5,915 nt of DNA from a virus (taxonomy: Duplodnaviria > Heunggongvirae > Uroviricota > Caudoviricetes), in IMG/VR virus record IMGVR_UViG_2585427787_000007. One strand, written 5' to 3'. The notes under the pieces are model-generated. The model was given only the letters and a program-made list of their open reading frames with translations. It ran no database searches and was not told the origin of the DNA. The position numbers and the translations under genes are program-made. Below, piece by piece: positions 1 through 5,474 of the stretch (positions within the stretch are counted from its first letter, which is position 1; every line of letters starts with the position of its first letter).

Positions 1-2
1 CC

Positions 3-203
3 GGACATCAGCGCTATCTCTGCTCTCATTGCCGTAAAACATGGCAACTGCAGTTCACTTACACCGCTTCTCAACCCGGTACGCACCAGAAAATCATTGA
101 TATGGCCATGAATGGCGTTGGATGCCGGGCAACCGCCCGCATTATGGGCGTTGGCCTCAACACGATTTTCCGCCATTTAAAAAACTCAGGCCGCAGTCGG
201 TAA
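3..203 (+). CDS. insA: IS1 InsA (transposition repressor), 5'-truncated by the window edge
   Basis: Frame 3 reads ...[66 protein letters not shown], ending at TAA 201-203; matches the InsA C-terminal region from memory. Confidence 0.85.
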
Positions 204-625
204 CCTCGCGCATACAGCCGGGCAGTGACGTCATCGTCTGCGCGGAAATGGACGAACAGTGGGGATACGTCGGGGCTAAATCGCGCCAGCGCTGGCTGTT
301 TTACGCGTATGACAGGCTCCGGAAGACGGTTGTTGCGCACGTATTCGGTGAACGCACTATGGCGACGCTGGGGCGTCTTATGAGCCTGCTGTCACCCTTT
401 GACGTGGTGATATGGATGACGGATGGCTGGCCGCTGTATGAATCCCGCCTGAAGGGAAAGCTGCACGTAATCAGCAAGCGATATACGCAGCGAATTGAGC
501 GGCATAACCTGAATCTGAGGCAGCACCTGGCACGGCTGGGACGGAAGTCGCTGTCGTTCTCAAAATCGGTGGAGCTGCATGACAAAGTCATCGGGCATTA
601 TCTGAACATAAAACACTATCAATAA
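122..625 (+). CDS. insB: IS1 InsB ORF (expressed as the InsAB' fusion transposase after -1 frameshift)
   Basis: 167-aa [19 protein letters not shown]...[15 protein letters not shown]; near-identical to InsB from memory, with a few substitutions suggesting an iso-IS1 variant. Confidence 0.85.
176..185 (+). other. IS1 programmed -1 ribosomal frameshift motif (TTTAAAAAAC, A6C) producing the InsAB' transposase
   Basis: A6C run seen at 179-185 near the end of insA, overlapping the insB frame; established IS1 biology. Confidence 0.7.
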
Positions 626-640
626 GTTGGAGTCATTACC
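618..640 (+). repeat. IS1 terminal inverted repeat (right end)
   Basis: ATCAATAAGTTGGAGTCATTACC read directly; sequence composition changes abruptly at 641. Confidence 0.8.
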
Positions 641-705
641 TTAATAACGATATAAAGAATGATAAACCAGTTGTACTTACCTCTCTTGCTGAGGTTCAGA
701 ATGAT

Positions 706-1335
706 TTGTGGGCCTATTGTATTAAAGTCCAAAAGGGGGCTGACGTCACTTATTCTTTCCGAAAAATCAGCAGGGGTAAAGTCACAACAAATGAACCACA
801 AAATATGACTCAGCGCGTATTCGCTTTGTTTGATAAAACAGATAAAGAGTTAAGATCATTTGATGGCAGCGCAGTCAATTTTGATGACAAAATCGATTGT
901 ATTTATATAAAAGATCAATTTTATGTATTTCATAAGAAAAGTTTTGAGGCTATTGTAGGCTTGGAGGTTGAGTTTACAGAAGCTGCACAAAAAACATTAA
1001 ATACAATTAAAGAACTTGATCTTATTGAAGGTTTAGATGTTATTGAACAAGCTATTCTTCATAAGCCATCACTGAGAAAAATTCTCACTCATATCGCTGA
1101 GAAAGGTAACCATACGGTTCTGGAAAAGAATGATGTTCAAGCTATGAATGATGTGCTAAAAATGTTTCAGAACGAAGAGTTTAAGACCAATGAGCATGGT
1201 AAATTAGTCATAGAAGATGAGAGGCAAGGAAGAAACTTTCTCAAACTGTTAAATGATTATTATAAACAAGGCATGACTACAAAAAAATACTATGGTACGG
1301 ATAGCGGAAATGTGATTAACCCTATTAAGGCGTAA
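706..1335 (+). CDS. Hypothetical protein, AT-rich; probably the 3' fragment of a gene decapitated by the IS1 insertion (frame open back to the IS1 junction at 641)
   Basis: Frame 1 has no stop between 583 and 1335. The only in-frame start candidates after the IS1 end are TTG 706 and ATG 805. Hand counts on sample 60-mers give about 23-35% G+C against about 60% in ydfU. No family recognised from sequence. Confidence 0.55.
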   Translation: MWAYCIKVQKGADVTYSFRKISRGKVTTNEPQNMTQRVFALFDKTDKELRSFDGSAVNFDDKIDCIYIKDQFYVFHKKSFEAIVGLEVEFTEAAQKTLNTIKELDLIEGLDVIEQAILHKPSLRKILTHIAEKGNHTVLEKNDVQAMNDVLKMFQNEEFKTNEHGKLVIEDERQGRNFLKLLNDYYKQGMTTKKYYGTDSGNVINPIKA

Positions 1336-1683
1336 AGCATATACTATATCTGGAACTGAAATACCAGCCGCCATCAGAAAGAACTGATGGGGCTTACAGA
1401 TAGTAAGTAAATATAAAATGTTAAGGTATTTTTCATGCAAAAATGAAAATCATTGGCACAAATTAGAAACTAAGTAAATTGCTAATACTAATAACTTATT
1501 ATTCTACTTACTATTTGCATGGAGTTATTGTGAATTGCTGGAAAGGTGGGTAATGTTTTTGTAGAATCACGGCGGGTGCTTGAGGCTATCTGCCTCGGGC
1601 ACGAACACCAAAGGCAGATAGAGAAAAGCCCCAGTTAACATTACGCGTCCTGCAAGACGTTTAACATTAATCTGAGGCTCCCT

Positions 1684-1896
1684 ATGCATGACAACATCAG
1701 GTTAGCCTCTTATGTGCCGAAAGGCAAGGAGAAGCAGGCTATGAAGCAGCAAAAGGCGATGTTAATCGCCCTGATCGTCATCTGTTTAACCGTCATAGTG
1801 ACGGCACTGGTAACGAGGAAAGACCTCTGCGAGGTACGAATCCGAACCGGCCAGACGGAGGTCGCTGTCTTCACAGCTTACGAACCTGAGGAGTAA
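1684..1896 (+). CDS. mok-like in-frame upstream reading frame of the hok locus (N-terminally extended Hok, 70 codons)
   Basis: ATG 1684 is preceded by GAGG at 1674-1677 with a 6 nt spacer and is in frame with hokD. My recollection is that chromosomal mok frames are N-terminal extensions of hok; that is not verified here. Confidence 0.4.
   Translation: MHDNIRLASYVPKGKEKQAMKQQKAMLIALIVICLTVIVTALVTRKDLCEVRIRTGQTEVAVFTAYEPEE
1741..1896 (+). CDS. hokD: Hok/Gef-family type I toxin (small membrane-depolarising peptide), HokD/RelF-like
   Basis: 51-aa product MKQQKAMLIALIVICLTVIVTALVTRKDLCEVRIRTGQTEVAVFTAYEPEE with a hydrophobic TM segment and the conserved RKxLCE...EVA motif of the Hok family; SD AAGGAG at 1726-1731. 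Confidence 0.9.
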   Translation: MKQQKAMLIALIVICLTVIVTALVTRKDLCEVRIRTGQTEVAVFTAYEPEE

Positions 1897-1903
1897 GAGA
1901 CCC

Positions 1904-1925
1904 GGCGAGGGAGAAATCCCTCGCC
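1904..1925 (+). other. Stable hairpin in the hok 3' UTR (9-bp stem GGCGAGGGA/TCCCTCGCC, GAAA loop)
   Basis: Perfect inverted repeat read directly, 8 nt after the hokD stop; hok mRNAs are known to carry structured 3' ends involved in fold-back inhibition. Confidence 0.45.
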
Positions 1926-1965
1926 ACCTCTGATGTGGCAGGCATCCTCAACGCACCCGCACTTA

Positions 1966-1990
1966 ACCCGCTTCGGCGGGTTTTTGTTTT
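1966..1990 (+). terminator. Rho-independent terminator of the hok transcript (stem ACCCGC/GCGGGT, TTCG loop, T-rich tail)
   Basis: 6-bp GC-rich stem with a UUCG tetraloop followed by TTTTTGTTTTT. Confidence 0.6.
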
Positions 1991-2004
1991 TATTTTCAAC
2001 GCGT

Positions 2005-2034
2005 TTGAAGTTCTGGACGGTGCCGGAATAGAAT
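2005..2034 (+). promoter_or_regulatory. Candidate sigma70 promoter upstream of rem (-35 TTGAAG, 18-bp spacer, -10 TAGAAT)
   Basis: Hexamers read by eye at 2005-2010 and 2029-2034; not experimentally supported. Confidence 0.25.
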
Positions 2035-2112
2035 CAAAAATACTTAAATAGCGCGCAGGGATAAGAGGGATGGTCCCTTAAAGGGGAGAGCTAATTATCC
2101 GGAAGGATTCTG

Positions 2113-2364
2113 ATGATGAACATCGAAGAACTGCGTAAAATTTTTTGTGAAGATGGCCTCTATGCTGTGTGCGTTGAAAATGGAAATCTTGTTAGTCATT
2201 ACCGCATTATGTGTTTGCGAAAGAATGGGGCTGCGTTAATTAATTTTGTGGATGCTCGGGTCACGGACGGATTTATCTTGCGCGACGGTGAGTTTGTCAC
2301 TTCATTACAGGCATTGAAAGAGATCGGAATAAAAGCTGGCTTTTCTGCTTTTTCAGAAGAATAA
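2113..2364 (+). CDS. rem: Rem, small prophage protein of unknown function (Qin-type prophage)
   Basis: 83-aa ORF MMNIEELRKIFCEDGLYAVCVENGNLVSHYRIMCLRKNGAALINFVDARVTDGF... matches my recollection of E. coli Rem, and it sits immediately downstream of hokD as in Qin. SD GGAAGGA at 2101-2107. Confidence 0.8.
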   Translation: MMNIEELRKIFCEDGLYAVCVENGNLVSHYRIMCLRKNGAALINFVDARVTDGFILRDGEFVTSLQALKEIGIKAGFSAFSEE

Positions 2365-2430
2365 ACTCATCTACAATCTTGCGCGGGGCTGAACTCCCGC
2401 TGAGTAACACCGTGCCACCGGAGAAAACCG

Positions 2431-2709
2431 ATGGCACGCAACGCAAAATATTACAATCATGATAATTCGACCGTTCTTGCCCACACGCACGAGCGGTATT
2501 CTCACGCATTTAAGTCAGACTGGTACCAGCATCCCCCATGCACTGAAGAACAGGCCGAATGGCTCATTCAGTGTTACCGCAGGCGCGGATACGAGGTTAA
2601 AAAAGCCCTTAGCCTCGACTACCGTCACTGGATAATCTCAGTCAGATTGCCTTACTCCGAACGCCCACCGCGTCCGTCCCGCACATTCCAGCAACGCATC
2701 TGGAGGTAA
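2431..2709 (+). CDS. Hypothetical 92-aa protein (unnamed ORF between rem and ydfU)
   Basis: ATG 2431 has SD GGAG at 2420-2423 with a 7 nt spacer; normal G+C; stop TAA 2707-2709 lies 2 nt before the ydfU start. No homolog recalled. Confidence 0.4.
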   Translation: MARNAKYYNHDNSTVLAHTHERYSHAFKSDWYQHPPCTEEQAEWLIQCYRRRGYEVKKALSLDYRHWIISVRLPYSERPPRPSRTFQQRIWR

Positions 2710-2710
2710 C

Positions 2711-3760
2711 GTGCGGGTATTACTTCGACCTGTTCTGGTACCGGAACTCGGGCTGGTGGTCGTTAAGCCGGGCCGTGAATCCATGCCGGTATTCCACAAT
2801 ACCCGGGTACTGGTGGAGCCGGAACCGAAAAGCATGCGTAATCTGCCGTCCGGGGTCGTTCCTGCCGTTCGCCAGCCGCTGGTGGAAGACAAAACATTGC
2901 TGCCGTTTTTCAGTAACGCACGGGTAATTCGTGCTGCTGGTGGTGCTGGTGCATTGTCTGACTGGCTGTTGCGCCATATTAAATCCTGCCAGTGGCCACA
3001 CGGCGATTATCATCACAGCGAAACCGTTATTCACCGTTATGGTACCGGCGCAATGGTGTTGTGCTGGCACTGCGACAACCAGCTGCGTGACCAGACATCC
3101 GAATCACTCGAGCAACTTGCTCATCAAAATCTGTCAGCATGGATGATTGACGTCATCGGTCACGCAATAAGCGGTACGCAGGAGCGTGAATTATCTCTGG
3201 CTGAATTATCCTGGTGGGCGGTCCGCAATCAGGTGGCGGACGCGCTACCGGAAGCGGTATTACGTCGTTCGCTGGGGTTGCGTGCGGAAAAAATCCGCTC
3301 AATGTACCGTGAAAGCGACATCGTACCGGGAGAGCAGACCGCCACCAGCATACTGAAACAGCGCACAAAAAATCTTGCGCCGCTGCCTCACGCCCACCAG
3401 CAACAGAACCCACCACAGGAAAAGACGGTGGTCAGCATTGCCGTTGATCCTGAGTCTCCGGAATCTTTCATGAAACGACCTAAACGTCGCCGCTGGGTTA
3501 ACGAGAAATACACACGCTGGGTGAAGACACAGCCGTGTGCGTGTTGTGGTAAGCCAGCCGACGATCCCCATCACCTGATTGGTCATGGTCAGGGCGGAAT
3601 GGGGACAAAATCTCACGATATTTTCACGCTACCGCTGTGTCGGGAGCATCACAACGAGCTTCATGCGGATCCTCTGGCGTTCGAAGAAAAGCATGGTTCT
3701 CAGGTTGATTTAATTTTTCGTTTTCTTGATCACGCCTTTGCAACTGGCGTGCTTGGGTAA
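2711..3760 (+). CDS. ydfU: DUF968-family prophage protein YdfU-like, with a C-terminal Cys/His HNH-like metal-binding motif (start uncertain: GTG 2711 or ATG 2783)
   Basis: 349-aa ORF; C-terminal ...WVKTQPCACCGKPADDPHHLIGHGQGGMGTKSHDIFTLPLCREHHNELHADP... matches the YdfU/DUF968 family from memory; position between rem and the Q gene agrees with Qin. Confidence 0.8.
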   Translation: MRVLLRPVLVPELGLVVVKPGRESMPVFHNTRVLVEPEPKSMRNLPSGVVPAVRQPLVEDKTLLPFFSNARVIRAAGGAGALSDWLLRHIKSCQWPHGDYHHSETVIHRYGTGAMVLCWHCDNQLRDQTSESLEQLAHQNLSAWMIDVIGHAISGTQERELSLAELSWWAVRNQVADALPEAVLRRSLGLRAEKIRSMYRESDIVPGEQTATSILKQRTKNLAPLPHAHQQQNPPQEKTVVSIAVDPESPESFMKRPKRRRWVNEKYTRWVKTQPCACCGKPADDPHHLIGHGQGGMGTKSHDIFTLPLCREHHNELHADPLAFEEKHGSQVDLIFRFLDHAFATGVLG

Positions 3761-3772
3761 AAGAGGTGAGTG

Positions 3773-4147
3773 ATGCTCATAGATTTGGTTTTACCTTACC
3801 CGCCGACGGTGAACACTTACTGGCGACGCCGTGGCAGCACATATTTTATCTCGGAGGAGGGAAAGCGTTATCGCCGGGCTGTGGCGCTTATTGTTCGCCA
3901 GCAGCGGCTGAAATTAAGCCTGTCCGGAAGGCTGGCGATAAAGGTGATTGCAGAGCCACCGGATAAGCGTCGTCGCGACCTGGACAATATCCTGAAAGCA
4001 CCGCTGGATGCGCTGACGCATGCGGGAGTGTTAATGGACGATGAGCAGTTTGATGAAATCAATATCGTTCGTGGTCAGCCAGTATCTGGTGGACGTCTGG
4101 GGGTGAAGATTTACCCCATAATGCATGAAGAGCAGGTCAAAAAATGA
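3773..4147 (+). CDS. rusA: RusA-family Holliday junction resolvase (crossover junction endodeoxyribonuclease)
   Basis: About 125 aa; acidic motifs RRRDLDN and MDDEQ correspond to the catalytic Asp cluster of RusA. SD AAGAGG at 3761-3766 with a 6 nt spacer to ATG 3773 (GTG 3770 also in frame). Confidence 0.8.
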   Translation: MLIDLVLPYPPTVNTYWRRRGSTYFISEEGKRYRRAVALIVRQQRLKLSLSGRLAIKVIAEPPDKRRRDLDNILKAPLDALTHAGVLMDDEQFDEINIVRGQPVSGGRLGVKIYPIMHEEQVKK

Positions 4148-4965
4148 AACTGGAAGATTTACCGAAATACTACTCCCCAAAATCCCCTTGCCTGACCGAT
4201 GCATCGGCCTCAACGTCAAAAGATGCGCTGAGTATCACTGATGTGATGGCCGCGCAGGGCATGACACAGAATCGGGCTGAGATGGGGTTTTCTGCGTTCC
4301 TGGGGAAAATGGGCATCAGTATGAATGACAGGGCGCGGGCAACAGAATTACTGGCAGATTATGCACTCAGTCGGTGCGATCGTGTGGCGGCGTTGAGAAA
4401 ACTTCCGGCAGAAATAAAACCGTTAGTGATGCGCATTATGGCTTCGTACGCTTTTGAGGATTATGCCCGCAGCGCAGCGAGTAAAAAGCAGTGCCCTTGT
4501 TGCTATGGGGAAAAATTTATTGAAAGCGTAGTTTTTACAAACAAGGTCCAGTATCCGGATGGTAAGCCGCCGGTATGGGCAAAGTGTACGAAAGGTGTGT
4601 ATCCGTCTTACTGGGAAGAATGGAAAAAAGTCAGGGAGGTGGTAAAAGTTGCCTGTCCGGAGTGTGGCGGAAAGGGTGAGGTTTCCACCGTCTGTAAGGA
4701 TTGCCGTGGGCGTGGTGTCGCCATTCACCGTGAAGAGTCGGTAAAACGTGGTATGCCTGTTATCAGAGACTGCCAGCGTTGTGGTGGTCGTGGCTATGAA
4801 AGACTACCATCAACGGAGGCATTTAATGCTATATGCGAGGTGACAAACCAGATAACACGCGCGTCATGGGAAAAAACAGTTAAGAAATTCTATGATGCGC
4901 TGGTGACCCGGTTTGATATTGAAGAAGCATGGGCTGAGCGGCAGTTAAAAAAGGTAACTAGGTAA
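4144..4965 (+). CDS. Late-gene antitermination protein Q (phage 82/21/Qin-type Q) with three CxxCxGxG zinc-finger-like repeats
   Basis: 273-aa ORF; N-terminus MKLEDLPKYYSPKS..LTDASASTS and the C-terminal YDAL region resemble the QuuQ/YdfT-type Q from memory. CPECGGKG, CKDCRGRG and CQRCGGRG repeats read directly. Start ATG 4144 overlaps the rusA stop (ATGA). Confidence 0.8.
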   Translation: MKLEDLPKYYSPKSPCLTDASASTSKDALSITDVMAAQGMTQNRAEMGFSAFLGKMGISMNDRARATELLADYALSRCDRVAALRKLPAEIKPLVMRIMASYAFEDYARSAASKKQCPCCYGEKFIESVVFTNKVQYPDGKPPVWAKCTKGVYPSYWEEWKKVREVVKVACPECGGKGEVSTVCKDCRGRGVAIHREESVKRGMPVIRDCQRCGGRGYERLPSTEAFNAICEVTNQITRASWEKTVKKFYDALVTRFDIEEAWAERQLKKVTR

Positions 4966-4970
4966 CAAGG

Positions 4971-4998
4971 TTGATTTTTCCGGAATCTGTGGTAAATT
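4971..4998 (+). promoter_or_regulatory. PR'-like late promoter with the expected qut region (-35 TTGATT, 16-bp spacer, -10 TAAATT)
   Basis: Hexamers immediately downstream of the Q stop; lambda PR' has -35 TTGACT and -10 TAAATT in the same position relative to Q (recalled, not aligned). Confidence 0.5.
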
Positions 4999-5045
4999 CG
5001 TCATAAAGATGGGCTTTTTATACCTGACGTTAGAAGAGTTTCTAC

Positions 5046-5070
5046 AACCCGCCACCGAGCGGGTTTTTTA
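5046..5070 (+). terminator. tR'-like intrinsic terminator (stem AACCCGC/GCGGGTT, 6-nt loop, T6 tail)
   Basis: Inverted repeat 5046-5052/5059-5065 followed by TTTTTTATT; lies about 45 nt downstream of the putative PR' start, as expected for a Q-antiterminated terminator. Confidence 0.55.
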
Positions 5071-5109
5071 TTGCGGAATTAATTACGGACCGTTATTATT
5101 CTGCTCCCG

Positions 5110-5148
5110 TGATCTTACCCAGCAATAGTGGACACGCGGCTAAGTGAG
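5110..5148 (+). repeat. IS3 left terminal inverted repeat (approximate extent)
   Basis: Begins with the TG dinucleotide typical of IS3-family ends; the 39-bp extent is recalled rather than measured, because the right end is outside the window. Confidence 0.55.
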
Positions 5149-5174
5149 TAAACTCTCAGTCAGAGGTGACTCAC

Positions 5175-5474
5175 ATGACAAAAACAGTATCAACCAGTAA
5201 AAAACCCCGTAAACAGCATTCGCCTGAATTTCGCAGTGAAGCCCTGAAGCTTGCTGAACGCATCGGTGTTACTGCCGCAGCCCGTGAACTCAGCCTGTAT
5301 GAATCACAACTCTACAACTGGCGCAGTAAACAGCAAAATCAGCAGACGTCTTCTGAACGTGAACTGGAGATGTCTACCGAGATTGCACGTCTCAAACGCC
5401 AGCTGGCAGAACGGGATGAAGAGCTGGCTATCCTCCAAAAGGCCGCGACATACTTCGCGAAGCGCCTGAAATGA
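5175..5474 (+). CDS. insE: IS3 OrfA (InsE), helix-turn-helix/leucine-zipper transposase subunit
   Basis: [52 protein letters not shown]...[15 protein letters not shown] matches IS3 InsE from memory. Confidence 0.9.
5435..5441 (+). other. IS3 -1 programmed frameshift motif (CCAAAAG, slippage at A-AAG) generating the OrfAB transposase
   Basis: A AAG at 5438-5441 in the insE frame; a -1 shift here reads through in the insF frame (..ILQK then [15 protein letters not shown]..). Established IS3-family mechanism; exact site inferred. Confidence 0.5.

Follow-up and report, generated by a model that had tools for sequence, protein, structure and literature searches.

The window, the whole stretch of DNA analysed here (5,915 bp), is identical to the complete contig JORH01000020.1 of assembly GCA_000713095.1, with an IS1 at its left end and an IS3 at its right. 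Short-read assemblies usually break at repeats. Between the two elements lies the early-right region of a Qin-like prophage, in which a 3'-terminal part of the anti-phage gene kwaB directly follows the IS1 (Table 1).

Table 1. Features in the left part of the window (positions are those of the window)
Feature	Position	Strand	Basis
IS1 3' end (end of insA and insB')	1..640	+	PF03400; IS1A/IS1B annotation of matches; terminal sequence
kwaB 3' two-thirds, putative pseudogene remnant	641..1335	+	PADLOC PDLC00223; Pfam PF16162; identity to L001
AT-rich non-coding 3' flank of the kwaAB island	1336..1560	.	composition; cross-genus comparison
Right copy of the 41-nt direct repeat, right boundary of the island	1561..1601	+	repeat search; NCTC9022 empty-site alignment
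hok/sok locus (regulatory part 1574-1746; hokD CDS 1741-1896)	1574..1896	+	RF01794; HOK_GEF

The IS3 begins at 5110 and fills the rest of the contig (to 5915). It contains an InsE-like ORF (5166-5474), and a second ORF leaves the contig. In IS3-free relatives, the base at 5110 is the first of a prophage tRNA with anticodon CAT (13180-13255 in strain C6, annotated as tRNA-Ile), whereas a tRNA search of the window finds none. In place of the IS3, strain C6 carries an IS200C about 40 bp upstream, which is absent from the window.

The IS1 part represents the 3' 640 bp of the element in forward orientation, the same as that of kwaB, and the contig begins within it. The ORF at 122-625 matches Pfam PF03400 (DDE_Tnp_IS1), and the E. 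coli genome matches to this part found by megablast carry IS1A/IS1B transposase annotation. The right terminal repeat ends with ...GGAGTCATTACC at 640 and directly abuts kwaB. The frame that closes at 1335 is indeed open through the IS1 end, as described in the first-pass annotation: its last upstream stop (580-582) lies inside IS1, its first start is the TTG at 706, and the first ATG follows only at 805.

At the same boundary the base composition changes. The sharp drop in G+C noticed earlier at 641 is evident from a composition count, as 641-1560 has 33.2% G+C (34.0% in the ORF part and 30.5% in 1336-1545) versus 54.1% in the IS1; the G+C of 1561-5100 is 50.7%. The prophage genes had been put at about 60% G+C. 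However, they average only 51-52%, with 58-62% in some 120-base windows. Chance does not account for the low G+C of 641-1560, as its 920 bases fall about 10 standard deviations below the 51% background. The composition rises back to the prophage level between 1501 and 1620, and the comparison with an empty site places the true right edge of the island at 1560/1561, so that the island end first proposed at 1560 is exact. The non-coding flank from 1336 to 1560 (about 30% G+C) is particular to the E. coli Qin-like context and shows no conservation with the Klebsiella, Vibrio and Pseudoalteromonas cassettes discussed below. Scans of this flank found no Rfam family and no terminator-like site. The antisense ORFs in 641-1560 (60, 44 and 63 aa) overlap the homology-supported frame and were discarded as chance ORFs of AT-rich DNA.

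The profile search that had been proposed for this gene returned both Pfam and PADLOC families. The 230-aa fragment encoded in the window matches eleven PADLOC KwaB models, the best of which (PDLC00223, E 3.7e-109) is covered from position 111 to position 338 of its 339. Over positions 1-338, the same model is matched by the full-length orthologue from IS1-free genomes (E 2.8e-159). In Pfam, residues 20-207 of the 230 match PF16162 (KwaB, formerly DUF4868) with an E-value of 5.6e-17 and 62.8 bits, versus a gathering cutoff of 26.3. The ORF ending at 1335 comprises codons 111-340 of a 340-codon kwaB, the gene for the DUF4868 component of Kiwa.

The suggestion of a candidate defence-gene remnant is therefore upheld, with the ORF being kwaB of the Kiwa anti-phage system according to PADLOC and Pfam. 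The description of the gene as uncharacterised and without a recognised family is not: KwaB is present in Pfam, PADLOC and NCBIfam, RefSeq names the protein KwaB-like, and both structures and a mechanism have been published. A reading of the ORF as what is left of some uncharacterised gene, accessory or defensive, outside any known family can be given practically no credence. No function is evident by eye and the clade is only distantly related to the Kiwa systems studied by experiment, but the strong and specific Pfam and PADLOC KwaB matches, the RefSeq name and the fold match to solved KwaB all contradict it. The remoteness is visible in NCBIfam, where the fragment (56 bits) and the intact KwaB (58.3 bits) stay below the 200-bit cutoff of KwaB NF041623, and KwaA reaches 81.1 bits for NF041622 (cutoff 100). 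The window clade is a divergent Kiwa clade, a member of the family by domain, fold and operon, and not an NCBIfam-type equivalog. The gene and its family are already known and are recognised by standard annotation.

Intact versions of the gene are readily found. In a megablast search of 5,426 complete E. coli genomes, the segment 641-1560 occurs uninterrupted, in single copy and with at least 99% identity in 156, and every one of these copies is annotated as 'Kiwa anti-phage protein KwaB-like domain-containing protein' of 340 aa. No interrupted kwaAB cassette was found among the 156 genomes. In the IS1-free loci the frame continues 328 nt further in the 5' direction to an ATG. The natural start is thus neither 706 nor 805, and the proposal that IS1 sits inside a longer gene is borne out by the 340-codon kwaB of these genomes. 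In strains C6 (L001) and 7/2 (L002), kwaB measures 1,023 nt and encodes the 340-aa protein WP_000915483.1; window positions 641-1335 are 100% identical to L001 8001-8695, within the intact 340-codon gene.

The earlier proposal to inspect the neighbours of IS1-free orthologues also revealed the order kwaA, then kwaB. The upstream gene, kwaA, ends 3 nt before kwaB in these loci. Its product, a membrane protein of 204 aa, matches PADLOC KwaA PDLC00212 (E 1.3e-101) and Pfam PF28043 (KwaA), and a 19-residue Kyte-Doolittle scan detects at least three strong hydrophobic segments in it.

The same gene pair is found beyond E. coli. A search with the fragment gave 83 homologues, nearly all of 337-342 aa, the shorter ones being mostly located on short contigs. 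They derive from Escherichia, Klebsiella, Edwardsiella, Aeromonas, Vibrio, Shewanella, Photobacterium and Pseudoalteromonas. In the three non-E. coli contexts examined (Klebsiella, Vibrio cholerae and Pseudoalteromonas), kwaA is located directly 5' of kwaB. The Klebsiella pair is part of a defence island and adjoins DarTG and MazEF, that of V. cholerae lies in a prophage between lysis and regulatory genes, and that of Pseudoalteromonas adjoins phage tail genes. Nucleotide homology across the genera is limited to the two ORFs and stops at the end of kwaB. The G+C of kwaAB is about 31% in Klebsiella and Vibrio and 36% in Pseudoalteromonas.

Comparison with the intact gene also defines the position of the element. 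IS1 is located after nucleotide 328 of the 1,023-nt kwaB. Window position 641 is kwaB nucleotide 329, and therefore the element lies inside codon I110. What the window holds of kwaB are the last two nucleotides of this codon, codons N111-A340 and the stop. The IS1/kwaB junction (window 521-780) is not spanned by any record from the 5,426 complete E. coli genomes, hence this IS1 allele is absent from that set. For several IS1 copies elsewhere in E. coli, the alignment continues for 27-36 nt beyond the element and reaches into the kwaB flank, with an overall identity of about 93-95% (window 521-676). These alignments probably reflect a shared AT-rich target preference or a spurious alignment extension.

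Instead of a simple insertion, a deletion or rearrangement mediated by IS1 could also have produced this junction. In this case the 5' part of kwaB would not be located left of the IS1, and the genome may lack both kwaA and the 5' end of kwaB. The left junction is out of sight, as the contig, which is the entire window, starts within IS1, and an exact look-up of N-terminal KwaB'-IS1 read-through products with duplications of 7-11 bp found none on record. The same look-up, however, failed equally for two further IS1 alleles known from at least 25 samples, and it is uninformative for that reason. The right junction, moreover, is clean, with identity to intact kwaB from the first base after IS1 (641). 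Simple IS1 insertion is also a commoner event than IS1-mediated deletion or rearrangement. A deletion or rearrangement is thus rated as unlikely, although it keeps a real minority share, and it is plausible that the 5' part of kwaB is located to the left of this IS1 copy. Under simple insertion, the left junction is predicted to read ...TTTTCAAAAGTTATTAATAACG followed by the IS1 left end GGTGATGCTGCC (or GCGATATCGTTTTCAAAAGTTATTAATAACG followed by GGTGATGCTGCCAACTTACTG), and the predicted 9-bp target duplication is TTAATAACG.

Structure prediction and a fold search, which had been proposed for the reconstructed protein, matched KwaB over the full length. The AlphaFold2 model of the full-length orthologue (45 aligned homologues) has a mean pLDDT of 77.5. 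Its sole significant matches in the PDB are the KwaB structures 9mrx, 9mtn and 9nyu, with Foldseek E-values of 1.5e-13 to 1e-9, a probability of 1.00 and TM-scores of 0.53-0.60 over about 345-350 alignment columns at about 16% identity. By sequence only, the match to the solved KwaB chains is weak (phmmer E 5.6e-6). With such low identity and an NCBIfam score below the cutoff, published interface residues can only be transferred approximately to this clade. To our knowledge, the 340-aa Qin-borne Kiwa clade has not been the subject of an experimental study.

The mechanism of Kiwa was described for the systems of E. coli ECOR8 and ECOR12, where membrane tetramers of KwaA and dimers of KwaB build a supercomplex (PMC11785009). 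KwaA senses phage attachment or DNA entry, a phage-induced disturbance of the membrane, and KwaB is tethered to KwaA via its N-terminal Rossmann-like domain (residues 1-185) (PMC11785009). The DUF4868 region of KwaB binds the incoming DNA, whereby replication and late transcription are blocked; the DNA-contacting residues of ECOR8 KwaB are found between 134 and 233 (PMC11785009). When the KwaA-contacting residues R21/R35/Y157 or P100/N101/Q103 are mutated, defence is lost (PMC11785009). About half of the Kiwa loci reside on prophages or defence islands, and the activity that defines Kiwa, protection from phages together with reduced conjugation, has been published for six other operons (PMC11785009). 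No evidence was found in the text of that paper that the 340-aa clade is among these six active operons, and the ECOR49 residue numbering quoted there does not match the protein of this clade.

Placed on the model of the orthologue, the IS1 break falls in helix 104-114. The lost part comprises strands 21-31, 45-52, 80-83 and 94-98 along with helices 4-15 and 56-74. Overall, four strands and two and a half helices are removed from the N-terminal domain of the model, which is more than half of this domain. Just 5' of the break, the homologue alignment contains an invariant motif, Y96/Y98/N101/F106, which we infer to correspond to the P100-Q103 loop of ECOR8. A full-length KwaB comprises about 300-340 aa with a Rossmann-like and a DUF4868 domain. 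The model of the orthologue shows this architecture, whereas of the 340 residues the window copy retains only those from 111 onwards. A scan across the IS1/kwaB junction found no promoter-like site, and no ATG occurs for 165 nt from the junction. Because of the lost N-terminal strands and helices, the lack of a promoter-like site and the missing ATG, the kwaB remnant is inferred to be, almost certainly, a non-functional pseudogene. By analogy with the solved systems, Kiwa defence from this locus would be abolished, since the DUF4868 region is kept but more than half of the N-terminal domain is gone.

It could be argued that a C-terminal fragment is still produced from TTG 706 or ATG 805, by read-through or from a hybrid promoter at the IS1 end, and serves as a free DUF4868 DNA-binding protein or as one half of a split KwaB. 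The DNA-contacting residues of ECOR8 KwaB do map to the retained part, split KwaB genes were reported in 70 of 9,797 Kiwa loci (PMC11785009), and frameshift and nonsense alleles that yield the same 209-aa ORF exist. Nevertheless, more than half of the N-terminal alpha/beta domain, including four of its strands, is missing from such a fragment, and in the solved system mutations of the interface alone abolish defence. The junction moreover lacks a nearby promoter-like site or ATG, and low-frequency truncated products are found in all size classes, as is predicted for random decay. A functional fragment is accordingly regarded as highly improbable, and the reading as a non-functional pseudogene is preferred.

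The window allele is not the only broken kwaB. A look-up of the 209-aa ORF retrieved five independent further lesions around codons 103-115, within about 40 bp of the IS1 site of the window. Two of them are IS1 insertions, one 5 nt upstream of the window site in the opposite orientation (L006, L008 and L011) and one 26 nt upstream that is oriented as in the window (L009 and L010). The other three are frameshifts of +1 (L003) and -1 (L005) and a nonsense change from AAA to TAA (L004). A mutational hot spot or selection was considered for the six disruptions in about 40 bp and was rejected. The clustering is an ascertainment effect, because only lesions between codons 100 and 132 lead to a call of the 209-aa ORF. 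Also on record are C-terminal products of the sizes expected for lesions elsewhere in the gene, with 306 aa (6 contigs), 260 aa (17), 241 aa (5), 176 aa (19) and 124 aa (3); the intact KwaB protein is found in at least 1,000 contigs. Taken together, the disrupted alleles look like sporadic decay of cryptic-prophage cargo. It is considered very unlikely that the clade, about 16% identical to the solved KwaB proteins, departs from the studied Kiwa systems in its mechanism or specificity, or that the disruptions reflect selection to shed the cassette (e.g. in favour of plasmid uptake).

The surroundings of the cassette show how it is inserted in the prophage. In L001, the block of low G+C extends from about 6943 to 8920, and a repeat search identified a 41-nt direct repeat of 80% identity that brackets the 2,019-bp island (6902-6942 and 8921-8961, the copies being 2,019 nt apart). 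The right copy, present in the window, coincides with the hok/sok promoter and the start of the 5' leader; the left copy may supply a hok-type promoter to kwaAB. A synthetic empty-site query recovered the corresponding empty site in NCTC9022 (L017), where queH is joined directly to hok/sok via one copy of the repeat. In REL606 (L018) and many other genomes, an unrelated filler of about 380 bp is located at this junction. As empty, filler-containing and 2.0-kb kwaAB states all occur, the queH/hok junction is a variable cargo site. Among deposited phage genomes the kwaAB cassette was not found, with matches being limited to 40-nt hok-type flanks.

The first-pass annotation had placed foreign AT-rich cargo next to a toxin locus, and this description is accurate: directly 5' of hok/sok, the cargo occupies a site in the early-right region of the Qin-like prophage. 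The latter is well supported: the Rfam model RF01794 (sok) is matched over its full length with 110.2 bits (gathering score 59), and the hokD product, which belongs to Pfam HOK_GEF, is the same protein as the one RefSeq names HokD. Equally correct was the remark that K-12 Qin carries relBE upstream of hokD and that the window does not, as hokD is reached here without an intervening relBE. A 70-aa ORF starting from the ATG at 1684 (1684-1896) extends the 51-aa hokD frame in frame and overlaps the sok-matching region. It may be a mere upstream extension of the frame or a mok-like leader frame.

From these observations the following sequence of events can be proposed. A Kiwa cassette of about 2.0 kb and 32% G+C, consisting of kwaA, a 3-nt spacer and kwaB, would have entered between queH and hok/sok of a Qin-like cryptic lambdoid prophage. 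IS1 would then have transposed into kwaB after nucleotide 328 (codon 110), and what was left behind would be a promoterless kwaB pseudogene that spans residues 111-340 and lacks its natural start. No evidence was encountered that contradicts the KwaB identification. Almost certainly, then, the window contains an ordinary IS1-broken copy of the known defence gene kwaB, part of a Kiwa cassette at the queH-hok/sok site of a Qin-like prophage. The correct label is a kwaB pseudogene, disrupted by IS1, in a Kiwa cassette carried by a prophage, which adds little beyond annotation. In practice, tools that accept partial matches should not count this strain as Kiwa-positive. Of modest wider use are the queH/hok junction of Qin-like prophages as a variable cargo site and the recognition of a widespread Kiwa clade that seems to have escaped experimental study.

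Four known systems can be compared with the locus. The Qin (Kim) cryptic prophage of K-12 shares with it dicB, the dicA/dicC-like repressors, hokD, rem, ydfU (DUF968) and a Q-like antiterminator. In K-12-type loci, however, a 3.27-kb segment with an ISNCY remnant, ydfW, flxA, ydfV and relBE interrupts the hok leader. This segment is absent from the window and from strain C6, and in the window the hok/sok locus is uninterrupted, with the kwaAB island upstream of it. The segment is flanked by the 16-nt repeat AGGAGAAGCAGGCTAT, as is seen from L002 9087-12393 versus L001 9087-9102 (about 1727-1742 in the window). The uninterrupted hok/sok of the window is presumably the ancestral arrangement.

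The broken gene itself resembles other cases of insertional inactivation by IS1, in that the terminal repeat of the element abuts the gene at an AT-rich target; the left end and the 8-9-bp target duplication are located beyond the contig of the window. The closest system with known structures is the Kiwa KwaB of ECOR8 and ECOR12 (9MRX, 9MTN, 9NYU and 9O0I; Zhang, Todeschini et al., PMC11785009). Common to both are the DUF4868/PF16162 domain, the two-domain fold over the whole length of the orthologue (E 1.5e-13, TM about 0.6), the kwaA partner directly upstream and the carriage on prophages or defence islands. The solved proteins differ in length (315-321 aa versus 340 aa) and share only about 16% identity with this clade, which scores under the NCBIfam cutoff. 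The window copy is further set apart by its missing residues 1-110, owing to the IS1. With the PADLOC families KwaB PDLC00223 and KwaA PDLC00212, by contrast, no difference exists for the intact locus. Of these two models, the window shows only KwaB positions 111-338 and no KwaA, whereas the intact orthologues match end to end, and the clade is already catalogued as Kiwa.
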